Shown: positions 1,423 to 47,324 of the stretch, in pieces
Position numbering within the stretch: position 1 is the stretch's first letter
How the letters are laid out: each line of letters begins with the position of its first letter
Source of the DNA: Candidatus Uhrbacteria bacterium RIFCSPHIGHO2_02_FULL_46_47
Lineage (GTDB): Bacteria; Patescibacteriota; Patescibacteriia; GWA2-47-26
Length of the DNA: 56,921 nt
Assembly (NCBI GenBank): GCA_001790815.1
Contig: MGDU01000023.1
Coordinates: forward strand, 1 to 56,921
Reading direction: 5' to 3'
Program-made: the position numbers and the translations under genes
The notes under the pieces: model-generated
What the model was told of the DNA's origin: nothing
Database searches by the model: none
What the model saw: only the letters and a program-made list of their open reading frames with translations

Positions 1423-2913
1423 TTACTTCTTGCCGCCCTTCTTGCGGTACGACTGGCCGAGGAGACCAGAGCCCTCGTTGGACTTCATGGCCGAGCGCTG
1501 AGCGCGGTTTTCCGCCGCCTTCTGCCCGCGCTTGCCTTCCCGCCTGGCACGCGTCATCGCGTTCTTGTGCCGCTTCCGACACCCGCCGCACACGCCCACG
1601 AGTTGATCCGGCGCGCCGCTCTCCTTGTCGAAGAGCTTGGAAACGGACGCACCGCAGTCCGCGCACCGGAGCGATCCCTTCGCGCCGTTTTTCACATGTG
1701 CTTTGCCTGCCTGCCAGGCCTCGGGCCACTTGGCCTTGATGTGCTCGATCACCTTGTAGCGCAGGTAGCCGAGCGTCTTGAACTCCGGCCCATGGAGCAG
1801 GCAGCTCTTGGCCAACGCCTTGGCCTGCTTGCGTGCCACGCTGTCGTGCTGGTGCAACTCGGAGTCCGGCGTGTCCAAATCGCTGTGCGCCGCGAGAAGG
1901 TCGTCGTAGCGACCCTTTGTGGTTCCGAGAATCGCGAAACAATCCTCCGCGCTACCGAGCTCCTCGTTTCTGAACTTTGGAATCTCGGAGAGCCGCTCGC
2001 TGGGGTTGCCCTTGACCTCCTTGGCCATGTTGCAGGCGACCGTGATGGGCTCGGCCTTCCTCGCCGGCACGCTCCCCGCCCCACCCTTGATGAGCTCGAG
2101 CTTTGGCACGGGCAAATCCGGCATCAGCTTGACCGCCGACGTGATCGGCTCCGCGATCCCGAGCTCCAGCTTCTTCGCATGGATTGCTTCTTCCATCGCG
2201 CGGATGGCGAGAACCTTGAGCGCGCGCTCGATCGCGGCCTTCTTGGTTTGGTACGCGGACTCGTCCACGAACCCGGCCGCGAAGGACTCGTTAAGGGTCT
2301 TGGCGAGCTTCATGAGCTCCTTCTTGCTCTTGCCGGCGTACTCCTCCGGCACCACCGTGGCAGGCGCAAGAGTGACCGGCCTGGTCGGCGTTTGCGCGGT
2401 CTGCTCCGCGGTCTTCTGCGCCGCCGCCTCTTCCTTCTGCCGCACGAACTTCTCGGCCAGCCGGTTGCCCAGCTCCCGCGCCTTGGGCAGGCGCTCCTGC
2501 CGCGTTTCCATCTCGCGGGCCACGCCCTGCGTCCGCTTGGAATCGGGGTTCTCCGCCGCTCTGTCATCGGCCACGCCGGCGTTGTGCAGGGTCTTGAACA
2601 GGTAGTAGAACTTGAACTCGTCGCCAAGTCCGAACTCGTACCGGCCGATCTTCAAGACCTCGCGACCGTGGCTGTGGCACAGCACGAACGGCCCCACCGT
2701 GACCATGGCATCCTGCTTGCAATTCGTATTGCCGGTTGCCGTGCAGTCCGCAATCGCGCAGCTGTACGACCCATCCGCGCCGCAGTAGAACGCAAGCTGA
2801 GTGAGCGACGGCATGCGCTGGTACAGGTAGTCGTAGGTCAGCAGGCATGCCGCGTCGCGCGCGGAAAATCTCGTCAAGGTCGCAGTCTTCGCCAGAACTT
2901 CCATCTCGGCCAT
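1423..2913 (-). CDS. GC-rich hypothetical protein with Cys/His clusters and Lys/Arg-rich C-terminus
   Basis: 496-aa ORF with GC3-rich codons, purine-rich RBS (AAAGGAAAGG), upstream promoter and downstream terminator. CxxxC/CxxH and CxxC...CxxC motifs. Confidence 0.75.
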   Translation of the reverse strand: MAEMEVLAKTATLTRFSARDAACLLTYDYLYQRMPSLTQLAFYCGADGSYSCAIADCTATGNTNCKQDAMVTVGPFVLCHSHGREVLKIGRYEFGLGDEFKFYYLFKTLHNAGVADDRAAENPDSKRTQGVAREMETRQERLPKARELGNRLAEKFVRQKEEAAAQKTAEQTAQTPTRPVTLAPATVVPEEYAGKSKKELMKLAKTLNESFAAGFVDESAYQTKKAAIERALKVLAIRAMEEAIHAKKLELGIAEPITSAVKLMPDLPVPKLELIKGGAGSVPARKAEPITVACNMAKEVKGNPSERLSEIPKFRNEELGSAEDCFAILGTTKGRYDDLLAAHSDLDTPDSELHQHDSVARKQAKALAKSCLLHGPEFKTLGYLRYKVIEHIKAKWPEAWQAGKAHVKNGAKGSLRCADCGASVSKLFDKESGAPDQLVGVCGGCRKRHKNAMTRARREGKRGQKAAENRAQRSAMKSNEGSGLLGQSYRKKGGKK

Positions 2914-2992
2914 GGCGCACCTTTCCTTTCAATTTGCCGTGAATTTTAAAGATCACACCTTGGCGCACGGCTACGCCAACAGTGAACTATAT

Positions 2993-3021
2993 AAGATACT
3001 ACAAAAACGCCCTTTTGTCAA
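2993..3021 (-). promoter_or_regulatory. Sigma70-type promoter TTGACA-N17-TATCTT
   Basis: Minus-strand -35 at 3021-3016 and -10 at 2998-2993. The -35 lies inside the hairpin GCCCTT-GACAA-AAGGGC followed by GTTTTT. Confidence 0.65.
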
Positions 3022-3055
3022 GGGCTTGTTGAGAAAATTTTCCGTATTTACGCCA

Positions 3056-3829
3056 TTATTTAATCTGTTGCTCTATCCATTTTGCCACTTCATCCATAAA
3101 TTCCGGTTCGTTCTCAAACATAGTTGTACCATGCCCAGCGTGCTGAAATTCTTTTGTTATATGCTTTGCGGGAGTCACTTGCGCAAGTTTGGCAATTGCA
3201 GAAAATGATTCGGGATCATCTGCCGATGCCGCAAGATACAATGCCTGATTAAGTTTTAACACGCGCGCTAGTGGCTCTATTTTTATCCCGCGATAATCCA
3301 GGCCGGGCGAAAGTAAAACGGCTACCGGCACTTCAGGATTTTCCATCAGATATTGCAGCGCGAGATTTGCTCCAATGGACGCGCCCACAAGAGCAATCTT
3401 ATTTTTATGCGCACTATACTTTTTAACAAGCCAATCAACTGCCGCGCGCACATCCAATATCTTCGCCTGTTGCTCAGCATCTGTAAAATTCTGATAATCC
3501 AACACTGTGAACTGTGAACCTGCCTTGCCGGCAGGCAGGCTGTTGTCTGTCGACTTTTTCACGCTCTCCCCATGCCCGCGAAAATCAATTGCTAAACTGG
3601 AAATTCCAGCCGCACGCAACTTTTCCGCAAAGGCGGCATAACTTTCTTTCGTGGCCGGCATCATGTGCAAAAGCAAGGCCTGCGGCGCGCTCTCTCCTGC
3701 ATTAACATAGGTACCAACAATCATAACACCATCAGATGTTTGAAATGTTATTTTTTCTCCTTGTGGCATAGTTTTTGCGCATCCGCCGCCAAACAACAAA
3801 ATAATGCTTAGAAAAAGTAAGTATCTCAT
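3056..3829 (-). CDS. Alpha/beta hydrolase, probable lipoprotein
   Basis: Lipobox-like GGGC signal, GASIG nucleophile elbow, DFRGHG, C-terminal GHG. Carries the repeat-derived insert LPAGKAGSQFTV. Confidence 0.85.
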   Translation of the reverse strand: MRYLLFLSIILLFGGGCAKTMPQGEKITFQTSDGVMIVGTYVNAGESAPQALLLHMMPATKESYAAFAEKLRAAGISSLAIDFRGHGESVKKSTDNSLPAGKAGSQFTVLDYQNFTDAEQQAKILDVRAAVDWLVKKYSAHKNKIALVGASIGANLALQYLMENPEVPVAVLLSPGLDYRGIKIEPLARVLKLNQALYLAASADDPESFSAIAKLAQVTPAKHITKEFQHAGHGTTMFENEPEFMDEVAKWIEQQIK

Positions 3830-12156: not shown

Positions 12157-12259
12157 TCTCACCGCACAGTTCACCTGTTTCGGCTCCGGCGTGCGCACTG
12201 CGCGCACCCGGGGCCGTATTATTTTCCCAGCACTTTCATATATGAAAGTGCTACCTGTT

Positions 12260-13322: not shown

Positions 13323-13439
13323 TTATCTCACCTCATCCCGCTTTAAAATTTCCTCAATCACAAAACTCAGCTTCGGCTGCACAAACCTCCGCAAAAACTG
13401 ATGAATATTCTCGGTTGTGATTTCAAATCTACTCCCCAT
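13323..13439 (-). CDS. Possible 38-aa small protein
   Basis: MGSRFEITTENIHQFLRRFVQPKLSFVIEEILKRDEVR, preceded by AAGGAG. Too short for the track. Confidence 0.35.
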   Translation of the reverse strand: MGSRFEITTENIHQFLRRFVQPKLSFVIEEILKRDEVR

Positions 13440-13485
13440 ATTAAATTTTACTCCTTAACATATCTAATCCCCAAATCCTCAAACT

Positions 13486-13527
13486 AAACAAAAAGTTCCA
13501 TACTTGGAACTATGGAACTTTTTGTTT
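13486..13527. promoter_or_regulatory. Palindrome T, downstream copy (17-8-17)
   Basis: AAACAAAAAGTTCCATA-CTTGGAAC-TATGGAACTTTTTGTTT. Contains the stop of the TrpR-like gene; 36-bp core identical to 14221-14256. Confidence 0.85.
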
Positions 13528-14142
13528 GACTTTGCCAAGTTGCATTTCTTTTTCAAGTTGCTGCGGTTTGCGGGGGCTGGTACGTTCCACGCGAAATAGT
13601 GCTTCAAGATAGCGAAACACTTCGCGTTTGCCTTTCCCGGATCCACGCAAAATCTTCAGGGTCTCCAGCATTCGCTTCCGTTGACGGTTATTCGCCGCGC
13701 GCGCAATTTCCTCAAGAATACCTTGCGGCCAGAAATAAAGCGGATAGCGGCGTTTCAGGTGTGCCCAACTTCCCCACATCTCACCAGCATGAGCAGGTGG
13801 CTGCCAAAGTGGCACAGCCATGTCCTCCTTGGCAAGACCACGTGCCATAACCATCCGCAAACCTTCCCCGGCTTGCTGCAACCATAAATTCACGCGCGCG
13901 ATAGTTTGCTGACTCACCTTGAGTTCTTGCCGAATCTGTTCGTACTTTTTGCCTTTGAGTAGTTGCTTTGCGATCTGCAGCCGTTTTGCTACCATGCGCA
14001 GCTCTGGCTCTGATAGTAAATCACCAAGCACTCTGGCCGACTCCTTAAGATTTTTGACCATCACCATGGATTGACAGAGTTCGAGCAACACCCTTTGCTG
14101 TGCTTCTTTTTCAAGTTTTTGCCGGGGAGTAAATTTTGCCAT
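13510..14142 (-). CDS. TrpR-like (YerC/YecD family) DNA-binding protein with C-terminal extension
   Basis: LGDLLSEPELRMVAKRLQIAKQLLKGKKYEQIRQELKVSQQTIARVN helix-turn-helix. Confidence 0.85.
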   Translation of the reverse strand: MAKFTPRQKLEKEAQQRVLLELCQSMVMVKNLKESARVLGDLLSEPELRMVAKRLQIAKQLLKGKKYEQIRQELKVSQQTIARVNLWLQQAGEGLRMVMARGLAKEDMAVPLWQPPAHAGEMWGSWAHLKRRYPLYFWPQGILEEIARAANNRQRKRMLETLKILRGSGKGKREVFRYLEALFRVERTSPRKPQQLEKEMQLGKVKQKVP

Positions 14143-14163
14143 AAAAGAAGAGGGGGGGTAAAG

Positions 14164-14223
14164 TCACGTTATTGACGTTTTCACGTTATTGACAAGTATA
14201 CCATGCACTTCGGTTTTGAGCAA
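14164..14223 (-). promoter_or_regulatory. Promoter TTGCTC-N17-TATACT with downstream 13-bp direct repeats
   Basis: -10 at 14200-14195 and -35 at 14223-14218. TCACGTTATTGAC at 14164-14176 and 14181-14193. Confidence 0.55.
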
Positions 14224-14256
14224 AAAGTTCCATACTTGGAACTATGGAACTTTTTG
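14221..14256. promoter_or_regulatory. Palindrome T, upstream copy
   Basis: CAAAAAGTTCCATACTTGGAACTATGGAACTTTTTG, overlapping the predicted -35. Confidence 0.85.
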
Positions 14257-14302
14257 TCAAGTTTTCTTGGTGTTACCTTTTTTGCCCTGTATTTTCAGAA
14301 TA

Positions 14303-15070
14303 TTAAATGTGCTCCAACCAACGTGAGATAACACTCTTCAACTCTTCCAAATGCTCATTGGCGCGGAGGGTGTGTGGCGCTCCGGAAATGAGGTGGAGCT
14401 CTTTAGGGCCGGGCAGAGCTTCATACAGAATCTGTTGATGCTCAGGCGGTGTGGAATCATCATACTCGCCCACAATTAAAAGCACCAGCATGGTAAGTTT
14501 ATGAACTTCTGGCATCAGATCATATCTTAGCCGATCTTCCATATGCGACCATGGTAGACGTTTTACTTTTCCGGTTGATTTACTGATTTCTTCACGCCAC
14601 CCTGTTTCTTTCCATTTTCGCCACTCTTCATGCTTTTCATGCCCTTCCATACTCAACGCGCCGGACACCACCGTGGAAATCGGTGCTAGGGCTTTCACTT
14701 TTTCAGGATGTCGCTCCGCATATAATGCTATACAAAGTCCGCCTAAACTATGGCCTACAAGTACAAATGTCTCCTGATACCACGGCTGTGTACGCGCCCA
14801 GGCAATAACATCCTCCAAATCTTCATAGTAATTTGTGGTTGTGGCTAATTTATAATTTCCGTCACTTTCTCCAAAAGTATTGGTAGTATCAAAACGCACT
14901 GCGGTGTAGCCGTACTCTAAAAATGTCTCAGCCATTGCTTGTACATGTGGCTGCTCCTTAAATCCTCCCAGATCATGCATGATAATTGCCAACCCTTTGT
15001 GCGGCGTGGTTTCTTCCACAATTACCACCATTTTCTGCCCTTTGCGATTTTGAATAAATAATTTTTGCAT
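14303..15070 (-). CDS. Alpha/beta hydrolase
   Basis: GHSLGG nucleophile elbow, GEYDDSTP, GAPH. Confidence 0.9.
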   Translation of the reverse strand: MQKLFIQNRKGQKMVVIVEETTPHKGLAIIMHDLGGFKEQPHVQAMAETFLEYGYTAVRFDTTNTFGESDGNYKLATTTNYYEDLEDVIAWARTQPWYQETFVLVGHSLGGLCIALYAERHPEKVKALAPISTVVSGALSMEGHEKHEEWRKWKETGWREEISKSTGKVKRLPWSHMEDRLRYDLMPEVHKLTMLVLLIVGEYDDSTPPEHQQILYEALPGPKELHLISGAPHTLRANEHLEELKSVISRWLEHI

Positions 15071-15077
15071 ATACTTC

Positions 15078-15109
15078 TTAGTCTCCTAGTCGTGCGACTA
15101 AGAGACTAA
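15078..15109. promoter_or_regulatory. Palindrome R, copy downstream of arsR-like gene (15-2-15)
   Basis: TTAGTCTCCTAGTCG-TG-CGACTAAGAGACTAA, one mismatch. Confidence 0.8.
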
Positions 15110-15122
15110 CGCTACTCTGACT

Positions 15123-15386
15123 TTATTTTTTGAAATGTTTAAGCAACGACTGTAAAATCGGGTGCTGACGGTTGAGCGTGCACCATATCCAAAGCGAGGA
15201 CTGTTTGCGGCATATAAAATCACACTCTACTAATTTCTGAATATGCTTGGAGGTGCTTTTCAAGGATAACCCGATTCGTTTTGCAACGCGGTTTATTGGC
15301 AACGGCTCATGTTTGGCAAGTTCTTGCAAAATGCGCAACCGCCGCTCATTCGCCAACGCTTTGAGACATTTGGTCAATTCTTTCAT
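15123..15386 (-). CDS. ArsR/SmtB family transcriptional regulator
   Basis: LKALANERRLRILQEL...IAKRIGLSLKSTSKHIQKL winged HTH. Confidence 0.9.
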   Translation of the reverse strand: MKELTKCLKALANERRLRILQELAKHEPLPINRVAKRIGLSLKSTSKHIQKLVECDFICRKQSSLWIWCTLNRQHPILQSLLKHFKK

Positions 15387-15430
15387 ATGATGATGTAAAT
15401 AATACTACATTCTCGCATCCCTCATGATAA

Positions 15431-15489
15431 CATATGCCCAGCCACTCTCCTAGTCGCACGACTAGGAGAGTGGCACGACTAGGAGAGTG
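15431..15489. promoter_or_regulatory. Palindrome R (16-2-16) within a 45-bp direct repeat, plus duplicated half-site
   Basis: GCCACTCTCCTAGTCG-CA-CGACTAGGAGAGTGGC (15441-15474). 15431-15475 identical to 16235-16279; extra ACGACTAGGAGAGTG at 15475-15489. Confidence 0.88.
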
Positions 15490-15496
15490 ATAAATT

Positions 15497-16237
15497 TTAT
15501 GAGTCCCAATAAATCTGTCCAGTTCTATAAGCTTCCATATCGTCCGCCACTGTTGCAAACAGTGGCGTTGGCAAATTATTTAAATCATACCAATCCCATC
15601 CCACACATTTATCCGGCTCTAATACCTGTGGATTGCCGCTTTCCCAATCTACCGAAAGGCTGACATGCACATAGTGCTTTGGCGCATATGCTTTCATATT
15701 TAGCAAGCGTAAAAAGCGTATATTTTTTATTGCAATTCCAGTTTCTTCCTTTACTTCTCGTTTTGCGCAATCTGCGAATGATTCCATATAATCAAGATGT
15801 CCGCCAGGCCAAGCATACTCCCCATCCCCGTGCGAGCTTTTGCGCTTGCCAAGCAAAACTTTACCGTCTTTCCAAATCATCACTCCAATCCCTACCCGTG
15901 GCCGCGTATACGGATGATTGGCTGGCAATGTCGTCACTTCTAGTTCTGTAATAATCCGCTTTTCAAATTTACCACGCTCGTTTGCTTTGTGATCTTTTAT
16001 TTTTGCAATCGCCTGCGAAACCCATTTTCTATAATTGCAAATCGCATCTATTACCTCCAATACATCTGCCATTTCTTCTTGGTTTTCAGCTTCCAAAAAT
16101 TCCGCCACTTCTTCCTGCAATTTTTCCTTTAATTTCTGCTCATACTCCGCATCACTGGCAATATGCGTTACCAACACCTCACCTTTCTCCTTAATAATCT
16201 CCGGTATTTTATCCCGCACGAGTTTAGAATATTTCAT
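15497..16237 (-). CDS. Fusion of all-alpha NTP pyrophosphohydrolase (MazG/HisE-like) and Nudix hydrolase
   Basis: N: KLVRDKIPEII...KLQEEVAEF...EEMADVLEVI. C: PGGHLDYMESFADCAKREVKEETG Nudix box. Start 16237. Confidence 0.85.
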   Translation of the reverse strand: MKYSKLVRDKIPEIIKEKGEVLVTHIASDAEYEQKLKEKLQEEVAEFLEAENQEEMADVLEVIDAICNYRKWVSQAIAKIKDHKANERGKFEKRIITELEVTTLPANHPYTRPRVGIGVMIWKDGKVLLGKRKSSHGDGEYAWPGGHLDYMESFADCAKREVKEETGIAIKNIRFLRLLNMKAYAPKHYVHVSLSVDWESGNPQVLEPDKCVGWDWYDLNNLPTPLFATVADDMEAYRTGQIYWDS

Positions 16238-16279
16238 ATGCCCAGCCACTCTCCTAGTCGCACGACTAGGAGAGTGGCA
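16235..16279. promoter_or_regulatory. Palindrome R, third copy (45-bp direct repeat including the start codon)
   Basis: CATATGCCCAGCCACTCTCCTAGTCGCACGACTAGGAGAGTGGCA. Confidence 0.88.
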
Positions 16280-16326
16280 TATTTTATTTTAAAATATCGT
16301 CGCTGTGTTTCATGCTTTGATTATGG

Positions 16327-16758
16327 TTAAATGGCCATTTCAATGTATTTTAGGTTGCCCGGCATCAGGTGCAAACGCGCGGCCTCCTCTTTGGTGCACC
16401 ATTTAATCTCGGTTACTTCCGTATGCGAAGGAGTAGGGATACCGCTTACAATGCGGCATTCATAGCAAAGTACAATCACCTGAATTTTTTTATCATCCGC
16501 CCGATCCCAGGTGTTGGTATGCGCGTACGGCAACAGGCGCACGATTTCCACTTCGCATCCAATCTCCTCTTTTACTTCGCGTTTTATCGCCTCTTCCGGT
16601 GTTTCCCCAAACTCAATCCCGCCTCCGGGAAACTCCCAAATGCCAAAAGCCGCCGGAATATAATCCAGCCCGCGCTTTTGTACGAGCACGCGTCCCTGCG
16701 CGTCCTTGATAAGCGCAATCACGGCCACGATCGGTTCCTTGCAAATAACCGTTTCCAT
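16327..16758 (-). CDS. Nudix hydrolase (MutT-like)
   Basis: WEFPGGGIEFGETPEEAIKREVKEEIG. Confidence 0.92.
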   Translation of the reverse strand: METVICKEPIVAVIALIKDAQGRVLVQKRGLDYIPAAFGIWEFPGGGIEFGETPEEAIKREVKEEIGCEVEIVRLLPYAHTNTWDRADDKKIQVIVLCYECRIVSGIPTPSHTEVTEIKWCTKEEAARLHLMPGNLKYIEMAI

Positions 16759-16785
16759 AATTTATGATCTCATGCCGCGCGATTC

Positions 16786-26159: not shown

Positions 26160-26852
26160 CTATGGCAACGAGCTCTGCCAGTTCCCTTCCGTGGTGGACT
26201 CAACGCCCAGGAACCAGGTGACCTTGGAGAACCCGCGCTTGTACTCGATGAGGTCGAGTTGGCGCTGGTTGCCATCGCCGAAGAGACCGGACACATACTG
26301 CTCGCCATTCACGCAGACTACGCTGTCCAGATTGACCACCTGCTGGAGATCTATCTGGGCCTGCGGGTGTTGAGCACCGATCATGAGCTCGTGATCGATG
26401 CTGACCTCTCTGAGTCCCATGAGCCACCGCACCTGCATGGCCTGCAGACGTGTTGCTTCATGCCCGATGCAGAAGGCCACGACCGTGTCCGTAAGCACGC
26501 GATACCAGTTGTTGGACTCCCAGTCATCCCTCTTCTCAACATGCATGCGTCGAGAACCGCAGGCATTCGTCGTGTGTGCTGGGTCGACGAAGTCGTACTT
26601 ACCAGCCGCGACCATCTGCTCAATCGTCGTGATCGGCCAGATCCCGACCTTGAACTCACGGTGCTGGATCTTCTCCAGGTCGATCGTCGATGCCCAGGGC
26701 CAGCTGTGTGAGGGCGACTCAGTCTTCCACGGGTCCTCATGTCGAAGAAACCTCTTCAGAGTAATAAGCCAGTCCTCTCCCTTCTCTCCTGACAGTTTGT
26801 CGTTCAGATCACGGAGCGGTCCACGCCTATCGCAGAGCGCTACTTTGGCCAT
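26160..26852 (-). CDS. GC-rich hypothetical protein of a CPR-expanded family
   Basis: LSGEKGEDWLITLKRFLRHEDPW...QMVAAGKYD...GAQHP...FLGV. AGGAGGAGG RBS 5 nt before ATG 26852. Confidence 0.8.
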   Translation of the reverse strand: MAKVALCDRRGPLRDLNDKLSGEKGEDWLITLKRFLRHEDPWKTESPSHSWPWASTIDLEKIQHREFKVGIWPITTIEQMVAAGKYDFVDPAHTTNACGSRRMHVEKRDDWESNNWYRVLTDTVVAFCIGHEATRLQAMQVRWLMGLREVSIDHELMIGAQHPQAQIDLQQVVNLDSVVCVNGEQYVSGLFGDGNQRQLDLIEYKRGFSKVTWFLGVESTTEGNWQSSLP

Positions 26853-26929
26853 GTTGGCCTCCTCCTGTGGCAACCTTAGAGCCAGCACTATGCCGAGTCC
26901 ACTGGTCTGCCAGTTTAGGAACTGTGTTA

Positions 26930-26972
26930 ATGCTATCATATTTTTGCCAAAATGTCAAGAGTGCGCTAGAAT
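26930..26972. promoter_or_regulatory. Overlapping divergent promoters
   Basis: Minus: TTGACA (26958-26953)-N17-TAGCAT. Plus: TTGCCA (26944-26949)-N17-TAGAAT for folD. Confidence 0.6.
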
Positions 26973-26984
26973 AGCGGCATTCCT

Positions 26985-27887
26985 ATGCAAATCATAGACG
27001 GCCGTAAACTTGCCGCACGAATTCGCGCAGAAGTAAAAGAGGAGATTGCGCGCCTCGGATCGACTCCGGGGTTAGCTGTTATTTTGGTTGGCAAAGATCC
27101 GGCTTCGCATCTTTATGTTGCGCTTAAAGAAAAAGCATGCACTGAAGCTGGCATCAAATTTGAAAAATATGTGTTTTCCGGGACAGAACCAGAATCCGAA
27201 ATCATTGAAACAATCCGAAAGCTTAATGGCCGCGATGATATTCACGGGATTTTAGTTCAAGTTCCTCTGCCTGCAATCTACCATGAAGACGTTATTCTAA
27301 GCACGCTTGATCCCAGCAAAGACGTGGACGGATTTCATCAAGTCAATTTACGAGCTATTCTTGAGGGGAAACCGCGAATTATCCCCTGTGTTGCTCTTGC
27401 TATCGTAGCGCTGGTAGATGAGGCTATAAAACAAAAAGGGGACGTTTCCCTTTTTGCCCACAAAAAAGGAGACGCCCCCTTTTTGGCCGTCCTAATTGCC
27501 AATCGCATGGAGTTTGCCGCGCCGCTTGAATACCTGCTGGAGAAGCGCGGTGCACTTGTTCAAATTATCTTGCGCGCTAAAGAAGTAACCACGGATATTT
27601 CCGCACAAATTAAATCCGCTGATATTTTGATTGTTGCGCGCGGCCATGCCAATTTTGTGAGCGGCGATATGATTAAAGATGGCGCGATTGTAATTGATGT
27701 AGGAACAAACACACTACCTGACGGCAAAGTTGTCGGCGATGTGGATCAGGGCTTAGCCCTGTCCAAAAAAGGGCTAAGCCCTATGGGCGATAAACCCGGC
27801 TATATTACTCCAGTCCCCGGCGGCGTAGGCCCCATGACTGTAGCTATGCTTTTAAAAAATACTTTAGAATTAGCAAAAAATGCGTAA
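26985..27887 (+). CDS. folD: Bifunctional methylenetetrahydrofolate dehydrogenase/cyclohydrolase FolD with two repeat inserts
   Basis: MQIIDGR, GILVQVPLP, KDVDG, VIDVG, TPVPGGVGPMTVAML. Inserts KGDVSLFAHKKGDAPF (27433-27484) and QGLALSKKGLSP (27747-27782). Confidence 0.95.
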   Translation: MQIIDGRKLAARIRAEVKEEIARLGSTPGLAVILVGKDPASHLYVALKEKACTEAGIKFEKYVFSGTEPESEIIETIRKLNGRDDIHGILVQVPLPAIYHEDVILSTLDPSKDVDGFHQVNLRAILEGKPRIIPCVALAIVALVDEAIKQKGDVSLFAHKKGDAPFLAVLIANRMEFAAPLEYLLEKRGALVQIILRAKEVTTDISAQIKSADILIVARGHANFVSGDMIKDGAIVIDVGTNTLPDGKVVGDVDQGLALSKKGLSPMGDKPGYITPVPGGVGPMTVAMLLKNTLELAKNA

Positions 27888-27895
27888 CACCACCG

Positions 27896-27939
27896 GCAAC
27901 TTCCTGCAATTTCATATTGCCATGGCAGTATGAAATTGC
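27896..27939. promoter_or_regulatory. Palindrome P, downstream copy
   Basis: GCAACTTC, then GCAATTTCATA-T-TGCCATGGCA-G-TATGAAATTGC (27906-27939). Confidence 0.8.
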
Positions 27940-28496
27940 TATAGATCAAAATAATGCCGCATAACGCGCTCATACTGGCCTAGCGATTGGGCAAGAAGAA
28001 GCGACACATGGCCGTCAATTTCGTAGAATTTGCAAATGCGCTCTAGTTCTTTATCGCATGGATACGGACACACAAACACGCTTTTTTGAATCGGCCGGAA
28101 TCCGAGCGCTTTAAGATGCTGACGAAGAAATTCGCGTGATACTTTTTTGACTGTCGGCACATCAAATGCCGCTATGCGCCACACACCATCCCATCGTGCC
28201 GGTTTTTCTAATTGCATGTTCCAAAGCTCATCTCGTTCAAGCGCCGCCTTGCCCTTTGGCGCGAGCTTTGCAATAATTCTGCCTTCATGATCTTCCTTGA
28301 GTTCAATGAGTTTAAGCCGATGAAGACTTTTGAGCCGTGTGCGCACATACCAAATTTTATACTTTGCAAAACGCGCAAGCATTTTCGGAGCGCCCGGCCC
28401 GACAAATCCGGCAAGTGTAATAACTATTGCGCTCTCCGCAAGTGTTTCAAGAATTAATTTAGTAAGCTCTCTTTTATATCGCTTGCGCCTTATCAT
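27939..28496 (-). CDS. PaaX-like winged-helix regulator with Cas2-like ferredoxin-fold C-terminus (CPR family)
   Basis: WDGVWRIAAFDVP...REFLRQHLKALGFRPIQKSVFVCPYPC. Confidence 0.8.
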   Translation of the reverse strand: MIRRKRYKRELTKLILETLAESAIVITLAGFVGPGAPKMLARFAKYKIWYVRTRLKSLHRLKLIELKEDHEGRIIAKLAPKGKAALERDELWNMQLEKPARWDGVWRIAAFDVPTVKKVSREFLRQHLKALGFRPIQKSVFVCPYPCDKELERICKFYEIDGHVSLLLAQSLGQYERVMRHYFDL

Positions 28497-28527
28497 ATAA
28501 TGTCTTCAAACTACAGATACTCATACC

Positions 28528-28551
28528 GCAACTTCGCATTGCCATGGCAAT
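28528..28551. promoter_or_regulatory. Palindrome P, upstream copy
   Basis: GCAACTTC-GC-ATTGCCATGGCAAT (perfect 14-bp palindrome at 28538-28551). Confidence 0.75.
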
Positions 28552-28567
28552 TTGAATTTGGTAAACA

Positions 28568-31573: not shown

Positions 31574-31945
31574 ATGGCAAACATCAAAAGTTTTAAAGAA
31601 TTGGGAGTTTGGCAAAAAGCGCATGACCTCGTCTTGTTCATTTATAAAATATCACAATCATTCCCCGAAGTAGAACGCTTTGGAATTACTTCACAACTAA
31701 GAAGAGCGGCAGTTTCAATTGCGGCAAATATTGTGGAAGGATTTCACAGATATACCGTACACGATAGTTTGCATTTCTATACTATTGCTCAGGGTTCTTT
31801 AGAAGAAACTCGATATCATTGCCTTCTAGCTCATGATTTAGGTTATATAGATAACAACAATTACCAACAATTAGAAGATTTAATCACTGAGGTAAGTAAA
31901 ATGTTGACCGCATGGATACATTCACAGCGTGTATCAGCGCAATAG
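31574..31945 (+). CDS. Four helix bundle protein (23S rRNA IVS protein-like family)
   Basis: SFKELGVWQKAH...FPEVERFGITSQLRRAAVSIAANIVEG...GSLEE. AT-richer than neighbours. Confidence 0.93.
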   Translation: MANIKSFKELGVWQKAHDLVLFIYKISQSFPEVERFGITSQLRRAAVSIAANIVEGFHRYTVHDSLHFYTIAQGSLEETRYHCLLAHDLGYIDNNNYQQLEDLITEVSKMLTAWIHSQRVSAQ

Positions 31946-37768: not shown

Positions 37769-39130
37769 CTAGAGTGTGCCTTCCACTACTGCGTTTTGTA
37801 GTCCCACCATAAAATCAAGATAAAATTTCACATTGTGAATGGTAGCAAGACGAAGCGCAAGCGGTTCATTGATTTTGAAAAGATGCCGAAGATACGCGCG
37901 ACTGTGGTGCGTGCAAGTAAAACATTCACAATACGGATCAATAGGCTTAAAATCCGCGCGATATTTTTCATTGGTGATGCGCATGGTGTCGTAAAAATTG
38001 CCTCGTAACCCCCTCTCACTCCCCCTTACCCTAAGGGGGAGAAGCGGCCGGTCTCCCTCCCTTAAGGTAAGGGAGGGCTGGGGAGGGTTATGACGCCACA
38101 CATATAAATTTCCATGCCTTGCATTTCTTGTGGGCAGTACACAGTCAAACATATCAATGCCACGCCGCACGGCCTCCACAAGTTCCTCCGGTTGGCCAAG
38201 ACCCATAAGATAGCGCGGTTTATCTTCCGGTAACATCGGCGCGACCCAATCTACCACTTGGTATTTTTCTTTTTGCGGCTCACCTACTGCCACTCCGCCA
38301 ATTGCATAGCCATCAAAATCCAGCGCCACCAAATCCCGCGCTGATTGCTCACGCAAATCCTTATACACTGATCCCTGCACAATGCCAAAAACCAATGTTT
38401 TAATGCTTTCATGTTTTAATACTTTCATGCTCCTCTCCGCCCAAGAGGTTGTTCTCTCCATTGCCTCCCGCGCGCCTTCTTTTGAAATCGGGTACGGCGC
38501 GCAAACATCCAGCACCATGGCAATATCTGATCCAATCACTTTTTGAATCTCCAGCACGCGCTCAGGTGTGAACATATCTTTTCTGCCACTTATCCGATCA
38601 ATAAACTCCGCACCGTCTTTAGTTATGCGGACATCATAATCCTGACCCTCACCCTCCCCTCTCCCTCGGGGAGAGGGAAATTGATTAGACCCCCCTCTAC
38701 CCGCGGGAGAGGGTGTCCGAAGGACGGGTGAGGGGTTACGATTCTTATTTGCTAGGCTAAACACCTGATACCCACCAGAATCAGTCAAAATCGGCCCATT
38801 CCATCCCATAAACTTGTGCAATCCGCCGGCTTTTTTAATTACCTCCATTCCCGGCCGCACATAAAGATGGTAGGTGTTGGAAAGCAAAATCGGCCCGCCT
38901 CTCCCACCACCGCTCATGCCTCCACTCCGTTTCGGTTCTGTGGCACCAGCATCTCGGCGGGCAAGCGCACCAATCTCCCTCATATCTTCCGCCGCCAATG
39001 TCTTGACTGCCCCGCGCGTGGCAATGGTCATAAAAAACGGCGTGCGTACTTTCCCATGCGCAGTCCTCAACTCTCCCACCCGTGCTCGGGATTTTTTTGA
39101 CTGGTGTAATACGCGAAATGGATTCATCAT
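37769..39130 (-). CDS. tgt: tRNA-guanine transglycosylase with three inserts
   Basis: SNTYHL, LTDSGGYQVFSL, GIVQG, YLMG, DMFDCVLPTRNARHG, C.C..C...HN zinc site. Confidence 0.97.
   Translation of the reverse strand: MMNPFRVLHQSKKSRARVGELRTAHGKVRTPFFMTIATRGAVKTLAAEDMREIGALARRDAGATEPKRSGGMSGGGRGGPILLSNTYHLYVRPGMEVIKKAGGLHKFMGWNGPILTDSGGYQVFSLANKNRNPSPVLRTPSPAGRGGSNQFPSPRGRGEGEGQDYDVRITKDGAEFIDRISGRKDMFTPERVLEIQKVIGSDIAMVLDVCAPYPISKEGAREAMERTTSWAERSMKVLKHESIKTLVFGIVQGSVYKDLREQSARDLVALDFDGYAIGGVAVGEPQKEKYQVVDWVAPMLPEDKPRYLMGLGQPEELVEAVRRGIDMFDCVLPTRNARHGNLYVWRHNPPQPSLTLREGDRPLLPLRVRGSERGLRGNFYDTMRITNEKYRADFKPIDPYCECFTCTHHSRAYLRHLFKINEPLALRLATIHNVKFYLDFMVGLQNAVVEGTL
38006..38092. repeat. Family B element in frame in tgt
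   Basis: Encodes [29 protein letters not shown]. Confidence 0.9.
38646..38735. repeat. Family A doublet in frame in tgt
   Basis: Encodes PSPVLRTPSPAGRGGSNQFPSPRGRGEGEG. Confidence 0.9.
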
Positions 39131-42484: not shown

Positions 42485-42615
42485 TCTCCCCTTAAGGTAA
42501 GGCCCGCTTCGCCCGCAAAGCGAGGCGAGGGAGGTGAAGGAGGGGTTATGCCTGCCCGCCTTGGGCGGGAATGTTCATAACTCACCCTACCCTCTCTTAC
42601 CTTAAGAGAGGGTTA
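42485..42615. repeat. Family B composite element containing the uvrC stop
   Basis: CTCCCCTTAAGGTAAGGCCCGCTTCGCCCGCAAAGCGAGGCGAGGGAGG...CCCTCTCTTACCTTAAGAGAGGG. Confidence 0.9.
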
Positions 42616-44156
42616 TTGTTTCTACTTCTCAATTTCCTATGATATGACACGGCAAATCTATGTGCCTCATCGCGCACGCGAAGAAGCAAATCCTTGTAGT
42701 TTTCTACGATTCGAGCAAGCTCCGGATTATTTTTTTCAAATATCGGACGGTCCTGTTTTCGTTTAAACCCCTTAGCAATGCCAATAATGGGAATATTAGG
42801 GAAGCTGAGCTTCCGTGAGCCACGGAAGCTCAGCTTCCGCATATCATCAATCACCTCCTGTGCCGCATTCACCTGTCCCCATCCCCCATCAATGACAAGC
42901 AAATCTGGAATTTTCCAGATTTGCGAATTATGAATCTGGAATAATGAATCATGATTTCTCAATTCCCTAATTCCTAATTCATGATTCCTAATTCGGCGAA
43001 ATCTTCTCTGTAGGATTTCGCGCATCATCGCCACATCATTGATTCCTGGTACGGTCTTGATTCTAAATTTACGATACTCGCTTTTCTTGGGCTCACCATC
43101 CTCAAATACTACCATTGACCCTACTGCTGATGTCCCACTGATGCCTGCCTTGCCGGCAGGCAGGTTAGAAATATCATATCCTTCAATACGCCCAAACACA
43201 TTTATTGCCTGAGCCGGTCGTTGGCCCTTCGACTTCGCTTCGCTTCGCTCAGGGATTAAAGTGTCACGAGTCAACACGGCAACGTCACGAATATGCTCCA
43301 GCGCAAACAATTTCCGTTTTAGGGCTTCGGCTTCTTCAAAATTTTCTAACTTTGCTTCATTTTGCATTTTTAATTTTACATTTTTAATTACTCTCGCCTT
43401 TTTACCTTCAAGCATCAAAATGACATTCCTTATATTTTTCATGTACTCCTTGCGTGTGACTGCGCCAATACAAACTCCGGGACATCTACCAATATGATAA
43501 TCAAAACAAGGACGAGGATGTAGTATGTAGGACGTAGTATGTAGTGGTTTGCAAGTTGACCACGGAAACCATTTGCGCATCAAATCCAATGCCGCGCGAA
43601 TTGCGGATGCGGAGGTGTACGGCCCAAAAATCCGCAAAAATATCTGCGGACGATTATGTGCGGCCGCATCAAATTGTCCGCGTTGGTTTTTTTGTAGTTT
43701 AAGCTCATTACCGCGAGTAAGCATCACCTTTGGCCAGTGTTCTTTGGTAATTAGCACATACAAAAATGATTTATCATCTTTCTCGCGCACATTATATCGT
43801 GGCTGATATTTTTTAATCAGGTTTGCCTCCAGTATCAATGCCTCAATCACGCTGTCTGTCACCTGATAATCAACCTGCCACACTTCATCAATCATCTCCT
43901 CAATCGTCCTACCCATTCTGCGATTCGCGCGAATCGCAGAATGACTTTTGTCAGTACCTTTCCAATAAGAAGTTACCCGCGACTTCAAATTCGTCGCTTT
44001 GCCGATATAAATCACCTTTCCCTTTTTATCCCTAAATAAATACACCCCGGATTTGGTGGGTAAACCCTCACCCTCCCCTCTCCCTAAGGGAGAGGGTGGC
44101 CGCAGGCCGGGTGAGGGGGTTCGCCGTTTAATTTTGATTATCTTTGGAATTGACAT
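42597..44156 (-). CDS. uvrC: Excinuclease UvrC (no C-terminal HhH) with at least six repeat inserts
   Basis: GVYLF...YIGKATNLKSRV GIY-YIG, Cys cluster, IEGYDISN, DLLVIDGG, RVRDEAHRFA. Confidence 0.95.
   Translation of the reverse strand: MSIPKIIKIKRRTPSPGLRPPSPLGRGEGEGLPTKSGVYLFRDKKGKVIYIGKATNLKSRVTSYWKGTDKSHSAIRANRRMGRTIEEMIDEVWQVDYQVTDSVIEALILEANLIKKYQPRYNVREKDDKSFLYVLITKEHWPKVMLTRGNELKLQKNQRGQFDAAAHNRPQIFLRIFGPYTSASAIRAALDLMRKWFPWSTCKPLHTTSYILHPRPCFDYHIGRCPGVCIGAVTRKEYMKNIRNVILMLEGKKARVIKNVKLKMQNEAKLENFEEAEALKRKLFALEHIRDVAVLTRDTLIPERSEAKSKGQRPAQAINVFGRIEGYDISNLPAGKAGISGTSAVGSMVVFEDGEPKKSEYRKFRIKTVPGINDVAMMREILQRRFRRIRNHELGIRELRNHDSLFQIHNSQIWKIPDLLVIDGGWGQVNAAQEVIDDMRKLSFRGSRKLSFPNIPIIGIAKGFKRKQDRPIFEKNNPELARIVENYKDLLLRVRDEAHRFAVSYHRKLRSRNNNPLLR
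44065..44119. repeat. Family A element in frame at the uvrC N-terminus
   Basis: Encodes PSPGLRPPSPLGRGEGEG. Confidence 0.9.
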
Positions 44157-44601: not shown

Positions 44602-47324
44602 GCTAGCACTCCTTTCAAATACTTCCCAGTCCATGATGTTTTTACTTTCGCCACTTCCTCCGGCGTGCCTTGAGCCATTACTTCCCCGCCTTTGTCTCCT
44701 CCTTCTGGTCCCAGATCAATCAAATAATCCGCACTTTTAATCACATCAAGATTGTGTTCAATGACCAACACCGTATTTCCTGCGGTCACGAGACGTTGCA
44801 GAACTTCAATCAACTTCCGCACATCTTCATAATGCAATCCCACAGTTGGCTCATCAAGAATATACAAAATGCGTCCGCGACGACGGCCAGCCAGTTCTGC
44901 GGCGAGTTTTACGCGTTGGGCTTCACCGCCAGACAGTGTGGTCGCGGATTGTCCCAGTTCCAAATATCCCAGTCCTACCTCGCGCATCACTTTCAAACGA
45001 TCATGGATATGTGGGATATCGCGGAAAAATTCATCAGCTTCATCAATGGTCATGGACAGCACATCAAAGATATTTTTGCCTTTGTACAATACTTCCAGCG
45101 TTTCGCGATCAAAGCGCTTGCCTTTGCACACCTCGCATTTCACATACACCGTTGGCAAAAAATGCATTTCTATGGCGATCAATCCATTGCCTTCGCAGTT
45201 TTCACATCGTCCACCACCGCGGTGCGTGGACACATTAAAACTGAATCGCCCTGCTTTGTATCCACGCATCCGCGACTCAGGAAGCGCCGCAAACAGATCG
45301 CGAATATGTGTGAACACACCTGTATACGTTGCGGGATTTGATCGCGGAGTGCGACCAATGGCCGATTGATCAACTTCAACCACACCATCAAGATATTCAA
45401 GTCCAACAATTGCTTTGTGTTTCCCCGGCACATAATGCGCCAAATTAAAACGATTAGTCAATGTTTTGTACAAGATGTCATTGACGAGTGTGCTTTTGCC
45501 TGAACCAGAAACGCCAGTGACACACACAAACCTGCGCAACGGAATTTCAAGGGTGAGATTTTTCAAATTATTCTCATGCGCGCCGATAATTTTGAGCCGT
45601 TCTTTTGAGTTAGTGCGCCGCACAGCAGGAAGTGCGATTGATTTTTGACCAGTGAGATATTGGAGAGTAAGGGATTGCACCCTCCCCTCGCCCCTCCCAT
45701 CAAGGGAGGGGAATTCCTCAATACTCCCTCTCCCCTTGTGGGAGAGGGTTGGGGTGAGGGGACCTGCCACGACCACCTCTCCTCCTTGCTTTCCCGCTCC
45801 TGGACCTAAATCCACTAAATAGTCCGCGGCGCGAATTGTATCAGGATCATGCTCCACAACAATCACCGTATTTCCAAGATCGCGCAATTCAAGAAGTGTT
45901 TTAACTAGCCGCTCATTATCCCGCTGGTGCAAGCCAATCGTTGGTTCATCAAGAACATAGAGCGTGCCGGTTAATCGTGAGCCGAGTTGTGACGCAAGCC
46001 GAATACGCTGAGCTTCTCCGCCAGAAAGCGTGCCAGCTTTGCGATCTAACGTTAAATAATCCAATCCTACATCTAGCATAAATTTCAAACGACTGGTGAT
46101 TTCACGCAGGACCGGAAAGGCGATTTCAAATTCTGTGGGGGACAGGGCTAAGCCCTTGCGGCCTCCAGGGCTTAGCCCTAAATTATTCAAAAATGTATGC
46201 GCCTCAGCAATATTCATACCAGTCACTTGCACAATATTTTTCCCACCCACATAAACGCGCAGACTTTCAGCTCGCAGGCGCGCACCTTTGCAATACAGAC
46301 ACACTTTTTCAGAAAACAGCGACTCCGTACCAAGTCCATGACACTGCGCGCACGCGCCATAAGGGCTATTAAAACTAAACAGCCGCGGTTCAATTTCCGG
46401 AAATGAAAAACCATCATCCGGACAAGAAAATTTAGAGGACATAGTGAGCTCCGCCCCATCACCCCCGCCCTCTCCCACACGGGGAGAGGATTGAGGTGAG
46501 GGTGTGCCAAGTAATACTGTCACCACTTCCTTCCCATACTTCAATCCCACCTCAATTGCTTCAGCCAAATGCGAGCGCAAAGCCTTATTTCCTTCAATTG
46601 GCCAGCCAATCGGCACACGATCCACTACCAAATCAATCGTATGTGCTTTATAACGCGCCAGCACAATACGCTCTTTGAGTTTTTTAAATTCCCCATTAAC
46701 ACGCACTTCAGCAAAACCCTCATTATACAAATCATAAAGCATTTGATGATATTCCCCTTTTCTTCCGCGTACAATTGGAGCAAGGATGGTGATAGTATCC
46801 GCACTCGTAACCCCCCTGGCCCCCCTTACCCTAAGGGGGGAATCAATTTTATCTCCCTCCCTTAAGGTAAGGGAGGGTTGGGGAGGGTTATGAAGCCGCG
46901 CGAGCACCACATTTACCATCTCCTCCACTGTCATTTTCGCAATCGGCTTGCCGCAAACAATACAATGCGGCCGGCCTACGCGCGCAAACAGCACGCGCAA
47001 ATAATCATAAATTTCCGTAATCGTTGCCACAGTTGAGCGCGGATTTGCGCTATGCGCTTTTTGATCAATGGAAATTGCTGGTGACAATCCTTCAATCTCA
47101 TCCACATCCGGCTTATCCATTTGTCCTAAAAATTGCCGCGCGTATGCTGAAAGCGATTCCACATATCTGCGCTGGCCTTCAGCAAAAATCGTATCAAAAG
47201 CTAAAGACGACTTTCCTGATCCTGAAAGCCCGGTAAACACAATCATCTTGTTGCGCGGCAACGTAAGGTCTATGTTTTTGAGATTGTGCTCTCGCGCGCC
47301 TTTGATTATTATTTTATCTTGCAT
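44595..47324 (-). CDS. uvrA: Excinuclease UvrA with four repeat inserts and a deleted insertion domain
   Basis: [20 protein letters not shown] (twice), GVSGSGKST, zinc fingers. Start MQDKIIIKG at 47324. Confidence 0.98.
45680..45761. repeat. Family A doublet in frame in uvrA
   Basis: Encodes [27 protein letters not shown]. Confidence 0.88.
46137..46179. repeat. Family K doublet in uvrA
   Basis: AGGGCTAAGCCCT...CAGGGCTTAGCCCT; encodes [14 protein letters not shown]. Confidence 0.8.
46454..46502. repeat. Family A element in frame in uvrA
   Basis: Encodes [16 protein letters not shown]. Confidence 0.85.
46808..46891. repeat. Family B element in frame in uvrA
   Basis: Encodes [28 protein letters not shown]. 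Confidence 0.9.

Follow-up and report, generated by a model that had tools for sequence, protein, structure and literature searches.

Small regulator genes enclosed by pairs of their putative cognate operators in an Uhrbacteria contig and in homologous loci

Introduction

Why should a small regulator gene carry the same palindrome at both of its ends? This question is raised by contig MGDU01000023.1 of Candidatus Uhrbacteria bacterium RIFCSPHIGHO2_02_FULL_46_47 (assembly GCA_001790815.1), a stretch of 56,921 nucleotides (nt) which was analyzed as a whole and is called the window here. Three genes of this window, coding for a TrpR/YerC-like, an ArsR-like and a PaaX-like protein, are each preceded by one palindrome and followed by a matching one at or just behind the stop codon. 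An initial annotation of the sequence had pointed out this architecture and had proposed insulating loops, transcription roadblocks or selfish cassettes as its possible function. The palindrome pairs exist at these places and recur in homologues of all three genes. For the upstream copy, a role in negative autoregulation is suggested by its position. The downstream copy requires another explanation, and the candidates are weighed below.

Three regulator genes lie between matching palindromes

The palindromes were named T (TrpR-like), R (ArsR) and P (PaaX-like). Genes and sites are arranged as follows:

13486–13527: T1, the 3′ T palindrome, 42 nt including A/T arms, covering the end of the TrpR-like gene (five codons and the stop)
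13510–14142, minus strand: TrpR/YerC-like regulator, 210 amino acids (aa) (Pfam/NCBIfam, AlphaFold2 (AF2) and Foldseek)
14166–14195: tandem direct repeat CACGTTATTGAC (two copies) between T2 and the TrpR-like ATG (sequence inspection)
14221–14257: T2, the 5′ T palindrome, identical to T1 over 37 nt
14303–15070, minus strand: alpha/beta hydrolase gene between R1 and T2 (profile match)
15078–15109: R1 (TCTCCTAGTCGnnCGACTAGGAGA), 13 nt after the ArsR stop (15123), ending 7 nt before the hydrolase ATG (15070)
15123–15386, minus strand: ArsR/SmtB-family regulator, 87 aa (NCBIfam)
15441–15474: R2, a perfect 34-nt R palindrome (TCTCCTAGTCGnnCGACTAGGAGA), 55 nt upstream of the ArsR ATG
15476–15489: an extra R half-site beside R2
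15497–16237, minus strand: MazG-like/NUDIX hydrolase gene between R3 and R2 (profile match)
16245–16278: R3, identical to R2, ending 7 nt before the MazG/NUDIX ATG (16237)
27906–27939: P1, a 34-nt palindrome with 17-nt arms and one mismatch, abutting the PaaX-like stop
27939–28496, minus strand: PaaX-like regulator, 185 aa, with a winged-helix N-domain and a Cas2-like PaaX_M domain
28533–28556: P2, the 5′ P site TTCGCATTGCCATGGCAATTTGAA, 36 nt upstream of the PaaX-like ATG and 12 nt after the cutA stop

The T palindrome (CAAAAAGTTCCATACTTGGAACTATGGAACTTTTTGT, 37 nt) has two exact occurrences in the window (13489–13525 and 14221–14257), where none would be expected by chance. While T1 covers the stop codon of the TrpR-like gene (13510–13512), T2 is located 79 nt upstream of its ATG. 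T is an imperfect palindrome composed of 14-nt arms and an 8-nt centre, and since this centre is asymmetric, the two copies can be recognized as direct repeats. On the gene strand, T2 is directly preceded by TTGACA, the last two bases of which are the first two of the repeat. Both T sites fit a terminator pattern of GC-rich stem and U-tract in a scan, and T1 was predicted to form an RNA hairpin of −23 kcal/mol on the gene strand (z −7.4). The tandem repeat behind T2 may belong to the promoter or represent a further regulatory element. Two other palindromes, at 156–187 and 12229–12252 (arms CTTTCATA/TATGAAAG), were considered as T-type operators and not counted. The first lies inside an MnmA-like coding region and is almost identical to a T-type operator of a homologous locus (L006); the second is located in a convergent spacer.

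The R palindrome has the consensus TCTCCTAGTCG-NN-CGACTAGGAGA and is present in three copies. R2 is situated just downstream of a promoter-like sequence (TGGACA-16-TAAAAT), and the promoter scan placed both R2 and R3 directly after TAAAAT boxes, whereas R1 is preceded only by a weak −10-like box read by eye. Identity between the R2 and R3 regions extends over 45 nt (15430–15474 and 16234–16278) and includes TGGGCATATG, which carries the start codon of the NUDIX gene. The R2/R3 pair is a duplicated promoter/operator which has left a mini-ORF (open reading frame) of three codons ahead of arsR. A GGAG is present in the right arm of R, at a distance of 13 nt from the following ATG.

The PaaX_M/Cas2-like gene is bracketed by the palindrome ATTGCCATGGCA. 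P1 fills most of the 51-nt spacer that separates the gene from the stop of the convergent folD gene (27887). P2 has a perfect 14-nt core (ATTGCCATGGCAAT, 28538–28551). Allowing up to two mismatches, three matches to the P core were found in the window compared to 0.64 expected, which is of modest significance; it is by comparative data that the P element was established. In two loci with homologues of 74% identity (L003 and L045), the same 3′ P site occurs in the same convergent folD context. A third locus (L001) contains both P sites; in a fourth (L002), the 5′ P site is present and the 3′ end of the locus is cut.

The three regulators

The TrpR-like protein possesses a Trp_repressor/YerC-YecD N-domain (E 1.7e-13) and exceeded the cut-offs of PF01371 (50.9 bits, cut-off 27) and TIGR02531 (49.8 bits, cut-off 42.2). 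The TrpR fold spans residues 20–101, for which Foldseek returned matches to 3KOR, 3FRW and 1TRO. With its 210 aa the window protein is larger than a TrpR fold alone (about 90–110 aa), the remainder being a conserved, all-helical C-terminal extension of ~110 aa (residues 102–210). Foldseek, using an AF2 model with a pLDDT (predicted local distance difference test) of about 60, matched only the N-domain and gave no structural match for the extension; a nuclease or recombinase fold of the extension, which had been considered, is unsupported by this low-confidence model. The homologue search yielded 53 TrpR-like homologues. By its context, the window protein is neither HisR nor TrpR but a member of a distinct long-form subfamily.

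The ArsR protein was assigned by NF033788 (E 2.3e-15, 56.2 bits, cut-off 55). Its gene is flanked by the NUDIX and alpha/beta hydrolase genes, and the NUDIX–ArsR synteny recurs in two other loci (L128 and L132). The alpha/beta hydrolase gene is likely a target gated by ArsR. The PaaX-like protein matched PaaX_M (E 1.8e-20, 73 bits) as the sole PaaX domain found; its score with TIGR02277 (20.9 bits) was far under the cut-off of 264.6, so that it is not a PaaX equivalog. The best Foldseek match of its AF2 model (pLDDT 90) was E. coli PaaX (8A39), of which only the first part was aligned (TM score relative to the target 0.33). The initial annotation had described the three proteins as belonging to unrelated folds. 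This does not apply, since ArsR and the N-domain of the PaaX-like protein are both winged helices. Among the approximately 30 window proteins scanned, most of them small, these three were the only helix-turn-helix (HTH) regulators recognizable with Pfam, and all three are bracketed.

Paired palindromes recur in homologues and are enriched at the regulator genes

To quantify the arrangement, a gene was scored when its 5′ and 3′ flanks shared an exact 13-mer or longer sequence. For the T family, a 31-homologue alignment was used to obtain 34 loci from GTDB species genomes, spanning Uhrbacteria, other Parcubacteria, Kerfeld-, Doudna-, Moran-, Sungii-, Nealson-, Curtiss- and Gottesmanbacteria as well as Saccharibacteria. 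The flanks of 21 of the 27 long-form genes for which both were available (169–223 aa) shared at least 13 nt, compared to 9 of 321 other genes of these loci (Fisher p 1.4e-21) and to 7 of 197 size-matched controls (p 1.7e-18). When extended, the shared T elements were 20–53 nt long, 85–100% identical and palindromic. None of the four short-form YerC/YecD genes (108–112 aa) had a flank pair. Hence, only the long-form TrpR-like proteins, with their helical C-terminal extension, are accompanied by T pairs, a coincidence that would fit a bridging or oligomerization domain.

The PaaX_M-like family is a large one, with 2,846 clusters at 50% identity. A metagenome scan with a 15-sequence alignment gave 80 loci with 70 usable genes, 36 of which shared at least 13 nt between their flanks (controls 5/137; p 1.1e-15). 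With a shared palindromic 8-mer as an additional criterion, the counts rose to 44/70 and 6/137. Throughout the family, P sites are 30–45 bp long and have a palindromic core of 8 bp, for which GCGATCGC and GCTATAGC are the commonest sequences; ACGATCGT, CCTATAGG, GCGGCCGC and the GCCATGGC of the window are among the others. All six other ArsR-like loci (L038, L042, L043, L128, L129 and L132; 51–71% identity) have a palindrome 7–25 nt after the stop codon and one or two upstream sites, which in L043 lie ahead of a two-gene operon. In L129, which stems from marine sediment, a different R sequence is used at both ends.

Paired palindromes are thus far commoner at these genes than at random genes, and the refutation test named in the initial annotation was passed. 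In the window itself, a scan of the flanks of all genes revealed shared palindromic repeats only for the three regulators and for the NUDIX gene between R3 and R2. Three other window ORFs share 13–26 nt of non-palindromic flank sequence, one of them probably spurious and lying over tRNA-Ser. An outlier among the control genes is a 79-aa GIY-YIG gene (8884–9123 in L021), which is flanked by a 42-nt direct repeat (AGGTTCTGCGCCCGAGGCGCATCCGCCTTTGGCGGAGAATCC). The statement of the initial annotation that each palindrome was seen only near its own gene does not apply to R, since the third copy at 16245 precedes the NUDIX gene.

The palindromes as putative operators of the bracketed regulators

Several observations suggest that the palindromes of each family serve as DNA operators for the regulator enclosed by them. 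The cores are specific for the protein family: across phyla, T sites share CATACT-N4-AGTATG, R sites TAGTCG-NN-CGACTA, and related PaaX_M-like proteins carry related P sites. The outer arms shift with the protein lineage, those of T being lineage-specific but complementary. This co-variation of palindrome and protein had been anticipated and was found when sites and proteins were compared across loci. The T core resembles the GNACT half-site described for TrpR (PMC9413887). Its 24 nt are 100% identical in the window and in the closest genome locus (L004, from an Uhrbacteria metagenome-assembled genome, MAG), although the proteins are only 72% identical, which argues for selection rather than a recent duplication. 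P2, finally, does not form a significant RNA hairpin (z 0.08) and therefore reads as a DNA site and not as a structure. Binding by the encoded protein is the probable consequence of these features taken together.

The upstream sites are located at a median of −53 nt (T) or −41 nt (P) from the regulator start, and with half-lengths of 17–19 nt they would lie over the likely promoter or leader. It is therefore probable, judging from position, that the upstream copy mediates ordinary negative autoregulation, the regulator shutting off its own promoter or 5′ leader.

What the downstream copy may do

The centre of the 3′ site follows the stop codon at a median of +7.5 nt in T, where the site covers the stop, +35 nt in P and about +25 nt in R (half-lengths 16–20 nt for T and P). 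What comes next is variable. The downstream gene is co-directional in all 21 T pairs, while the P pairs comprise 16 co-directional and 10 convergent downstream neighbours. In two R loci (L038 and L128), a canonical terminator follows the stop codon with the R site in between, and a convergent gene comes next. The genes following orthologous T regulators are functionally unrelated, including a phosphoribosyltransferase, a UvrD-like helicase, GpsA, SmpB, ScpB, a glycosyltransferase, a subtilase and others. The conserved property of the 3′ copy thus seems to be its adjacency to the 3′ end of the regulator gene, irrespective of the next feature. As the attachment does not depend on context, its general function should concern the regulator gene itself.

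A reading that accommodates these data, and to which we assign a probability of roughly 45%, is that the 3′ copy serves as both loop anchor and roadblock. The 5′ and 3′ copies are 330–370 bp (R), 540–740 bp (T) and 610–975 bp (P) apart and hence within looping distance. Bound together, they could be bridged by a dimer of dimers which would close a loop of 0.35–0.75 kb around the gene; the 3′ spacer is the nearest non-coding DNA in these compact genomes. An occupied 3′ copy would also act as a roadblock, stopping RNA polymerase that leaves the gene or enters it from a convergent neighbour, and the same roadblock might gate the next gene if this is co-directional, by which the T and R data would be accommodated as well. 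In the T family, a roadblock on the stop codon could give rise to mRNA lacking a stop codon and so to feedback by trans-translation, as known for LacI at O3. The extra domains of the T and P proteins, for which structure models of monomers were made, would be compatible with the bridging of two operators. In two T loci, smpB, the gene for the partner of transfer-messenger RNA (tmRNA), directly follows the 3′ T operator (L012, 1825–2298; L013, 6602–7048); this is notable with regard to stop-less mRNA, though it may be a coincidence.

A more far-reaching version takes the self-contained bracket as a rule by which the Candidate Phyla Radiation (CPR) would handle its few transcription factors, comprising the loop, the stop-codon roadblock, tmRNA feedback for TrpR-like proteins, insulation from the long co-directional transcription of these tiny genomes and even the hopping of the unit between operators, for which two operators would provide long direct repeats on either side of the gene. 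Taken as a whole, this package is rather doubtful.

Some data weigh against the loop and the roadblock. The spacing of the sites gave no signal of helical phasing (Rayleigh test, periods of 9.8–11.5 bp), a test which is uninformative for loops above 500 bp. The ArsR protein of 87 aa is devoid of an obvious additional oligomerization domain. The 3′ sites of the P family are usually located 15 to 55 nt past the stop codon, a position at which a roadblock would not produce stop-less mRNA. Moreover, the median distance from the 3′ T site to the next start codon (62 nt) is much like the ~60 nt by which the 5′ site precedes the start of the regulator, all 21 next genes being co-directional, and extra T or R sites lie ahead of further downstream genes in L004, L021 and L132 and, with R3, in the window. 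The 3′ site of T and R could accordingly be nothing else than the operator of the next gene.

A possible operator of the next gene

Generalized, the latter explanation means that the brackets are by-products of a plain local regulon. Where co-directional genes are separated by tiny spacers, as in CPR genomes, any regulator encoded just upstream of its target ends up between two operators. The arrangement of the R sites in the window suits this explanation, as the start codons of the hydrolase and of the NUDIX gene are separated by exactly 7 nt from the ends of R1 and R3, respectively, and all three R sites stand behind promoter-like −10 boxes, though that of R1 is weak and was read by eye. It also suits the likeness of the two T distances and the uniform direction of the genes behind T. 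In L004, four T sites occupy consecutive intergenic regions and L021 has three; in L132, an R site precedes the NUDIX gene. Furthermore, the window and L004 have both retained the T site ahead of an ORF labelled 'FEIT...', although in L004 the regulator is encoded elsewhere. For the T family and the R sites of the window, the regulon explains the data about as well as loop and roadblock do. It fails, however, where no gene is available to be regulated: in 10 of 26 P pairs and in two of the six other R loci, the 3′ site is immediately followed by a convergent neighbour or a terminator, and the P1 site filling the convergent folD spacer is conserved in L003 and L045. The P 3′ site is also nearer to the regulator stop (median about 34–56 nt) than to the next start (about 100 nt), while the 5′ site keeps a distance of about 40 nt. 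Likewise, a common regulon is not what one would expect from the functionally unrelated genes behind orthologous T regulators. As a general explanation, the regulon is therefore somewhat unlikely.

Possible movement of bracketed genes

The initial annotation had also proposed minimal selfish cassettes. Accordingly, a gene together with one palindrome would move between copies of the latter, either by homologous recombination across the 30–70-nt repeats or by a site-specific recombinase of the Xer or integron kind using hairpin-forming sites, and in both cases would end up between direct repeats. The two copies mostly have direct orientation (T 18:3, P 26:10) and are often identical over 30–70 nt, asymmetric centres and flanks included, and the genomic context varies among homologues in all three families. 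One relocation is apparent from a comparison with L004, for which the following ORF is needed:

13325–13441, minus strand: ORF of 38 aa, preceded by the strong ribosome-binding site AAGGAG and lying 45 nt downstream of T1

In L004, a solo T site is followed by a 350-aa gene (2282–3334), the N-terminus of which is 68% identical to this FEIT ORF; the latter was also called in same-species contigs (L125–127). The order hydrolase–T–[TrpR-like–T]–FEIT ORF in the window corresponds to hydrolase–T–FEIT ORF in L004, which matches an occupied and an empty site exactly. The TrpR-like gene of L004 lies 3.7 kb from there between other T sites, inside a variable region which in both genomes has the hydrolase gene and secD as its borders. 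The 38-aa ORF itself is a split or remnant gene, the rest of which differs (a PEP-utilizers domain protein in the window). A cassette could also explain arrays of three P sites, the last two of which enclose hardly any coding sequence or none (L057 and L072). Such arrays were seen at 211/916/1190 (L057), 865/1496/1868 (L072) and 696/1263/~1940 (L051); their second interval (270–370 nt) contains little or no convincing ORF and may represent the remains of a cassette or code for a small RNA.

Against mobility, no presence/absence or inversion polymorphism, empty site or flipped centre was discovered in the 23 same-species contigs that were found by the exact hydrolase protein and read. Three representatives were compared in full: two are identical to the window, and the third, diverging elsewhere, agrees with it in gene order and in the sequences of the T and R sites. 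The genes are single-copy in each contig, and paralogues within one MAG have different palindromes (L007/L009, L008/L010). Identity drops roughly with taxonomic distance, as in vertical descent. Family-specific cores across phyla rather point to recognition by the encoded protein than by a common recombinase; the T core is fully conserved between species, and the TrpR-like extension yielded no recombinase or nuclease fold. For the one relocated TrpR-like gene, which is what is left of the selfish cassette, homologous recombination taking place now and then between copies of the operator suffices as an explanation. Mobility of the bracketed units is weakly supported, and cassettes are improbable as the reason for the brackets.

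Possible RNA-level roles

That the palindromes act in the transcript, as bidirectional terminators, stabilizing stem-loops or stems sequestering the ribosome-binding site, and resemble each other by duplication only, would agree with the very stable hairpins of T1, T2 and R1–R3 (−21 to −35 kcal/mol, z −4.3 to −7.4), the bidirectional-terminator layout of A-run and T-run which T shows in the window and in some relatives, compensatory changes that preserve the complementarity of the outer arms across lineages and the GGAG in the R right arm, but it is highly improbable in view of the P2 core kept without a hairpin, an AT-richness (mean GC 0.26–0.35) that makes the palindromes poor intrinsic terminators, the separate canonical GC-rich terminator after the R site in L038 and L128, the lack of Rfam matches at the palindromes (the window scan gave tRNA only) and cores conserved per protein family across phyla, which structure alone does not explain.

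Comparison with known systems

The closest parallel to the presumed loop and roadblock is LacI of E. coli lac, for which a roadblock at O3 on the 3′ end of lacI has been reported to generate truncated lacI mRNA and SsrA-tagged product and thereby autoregulation (PMC3711431). As in the brackets, a repressor site lies at the 3′ end of the repressor's own gene, and looping among O3, O1 and O2 strengthens its occupancy. On the other hand, the promoter of lacI itself is devoid of an operator, the main role of O3 and O1 is to serve the next operon, and the case is a one-off. The CPR brackets are symmetric with sites at the 5′ and 3′ ends, occur in three families and dozens of genomes and in part have no downstream gene to serve. 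More generally, blocked transcription-translation complexes are rescued by trans-translation (PMC13584721). A small HTH protein, C.Kpn2I, has been reported to repress its own gene by an elongation roadblock downstream of the promoter (PMC6237814); its context of restriction-modification is different.

The TrpR/HisR (YerC) regulators have 20-bp palindromic operators with a GNACT-like half-site and are frequently autoregulated (PMC9413887). The CPR long-form proteins share their fold but have an additional conserved helical domain of ~100 aa and a 3′ site; their operator has a different core (CATACT-N4-AGTATG), which lies within a palindrome of 30–40 bp, and no his or trp genes adjoin the T sites, neither in the window nor among the listed downstream genes of the homologue loci. 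The CPR PaaX-like protein has the winged helix and the Cas2-like middle domain in common with PaaX but is lacking the C-terminal domain of the latter, is not accompanied by paa genes and has other operators.

Lambda CI is encoded between the operator clusters OR and OL, which are joined by an octamer loop, and this long-range cooperativity tunes its autoregulation. Its loop is, however, 2.4 kb in size, each cluster controls an outward lytic promoter and the system is a phage switch, whereas the CPR brackets enclose single small chromosomal genes with one site per end.

In integron attC cassettes and the pdif modules of Acinetobacter, direct imperfect palindromic repeats surround a relocatable gene, the 3′ repeat following the stop codon. 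The CPR brackets do not form long arrays (three to four sites per locus at most), and their repeats are specific for the encoded protein family. No integrase, Xer or other recombinase gene was noticed among the flanking ORFs inspected, a systematic search not having been made. By the features examined, the bracket elements are not integron or Xer cassettes. A literature search in open-access PMC and bioRxiv did not reveal any account of the bracket architecture.

Other features of the window

The window contains further repeats and genes. Members of a second dispersed palindrome family (ACCCTCTCTTA...TAAGAGAGGGT and TCCCCTCTCCC...GGGAGAGGGGA), some of them inside murC and others intergenic, are located at

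23385–23411
24234–24265
24404–24428
24468–24494
38655–38679
42589–42613
44064–44097
48794–48818

Similar elements (CCTCCCCTTA..TAAGGGGAGG) were seen in L001 and L043. GC-rich AGGGCTAAGCCCT-type palindromes lie within coding sequences at 21276–21311, 27748–27782 and 46144–46179 (secA, folD with 'KGLSPMG' and a 932-aa gene) and look like in-frame palindromic insertions. Two near-perfect palindromes of 39–42 nt (GGAAGCTGAGCTTCCGT...ACGGAAGCTCAGCTTCC; 42800–42838 and 52676–52717) lie at a distance of 10 kb from each other, within large ORFs or at their margins. The tRNA-Ser(gga) region is flanked by a 26-nt direct repeat (GGCACCATGCCCGCTCGGCTTCCGCA, 53179–53583), possibly an att-like duplication. 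A GC-richer stretch (0.51) at 26100–26940 has long ORFs overlapping on both strands, among them a 259-aa ORF without a Pfam match; the gene downstream of the P gene of L001, considered as its relative, proved unrelated on comparison. A gene for a bAvd-like 23S rRNA intervening-sequence protein (31574–31945) adjoins recR.

Conclusions

Taken singly, the ingredients are known: autoregulatory operators, auxiliary operators with looping, 3′ roadblocks and repeats promoting rearrangement. What was not found described in the open-access literature searched is a regulator gene bracketed at both ends by its own putative operators throughout three families and across phyla. Gene regulation in CPR bacteria (Patescibacteria) is almost unstudied, as these organisms are largely uncultured and have few regulators. 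The comparison yields high-confidence operator motifs for three widespread, uncharacterized regulator families, which enable an immediate prediction of regulons in CPR genomes, together with a simple design rule of one operator at each end of the regulator gene. Should the 3′ copy indeed work as a loop anchor or roadblock, this would illustrate how single genes are insulated and kept under autoregulation in compact genomes whose genes run co-directionally and which have few terminators, and the curiosity of LacI at O3 would become a general principle.

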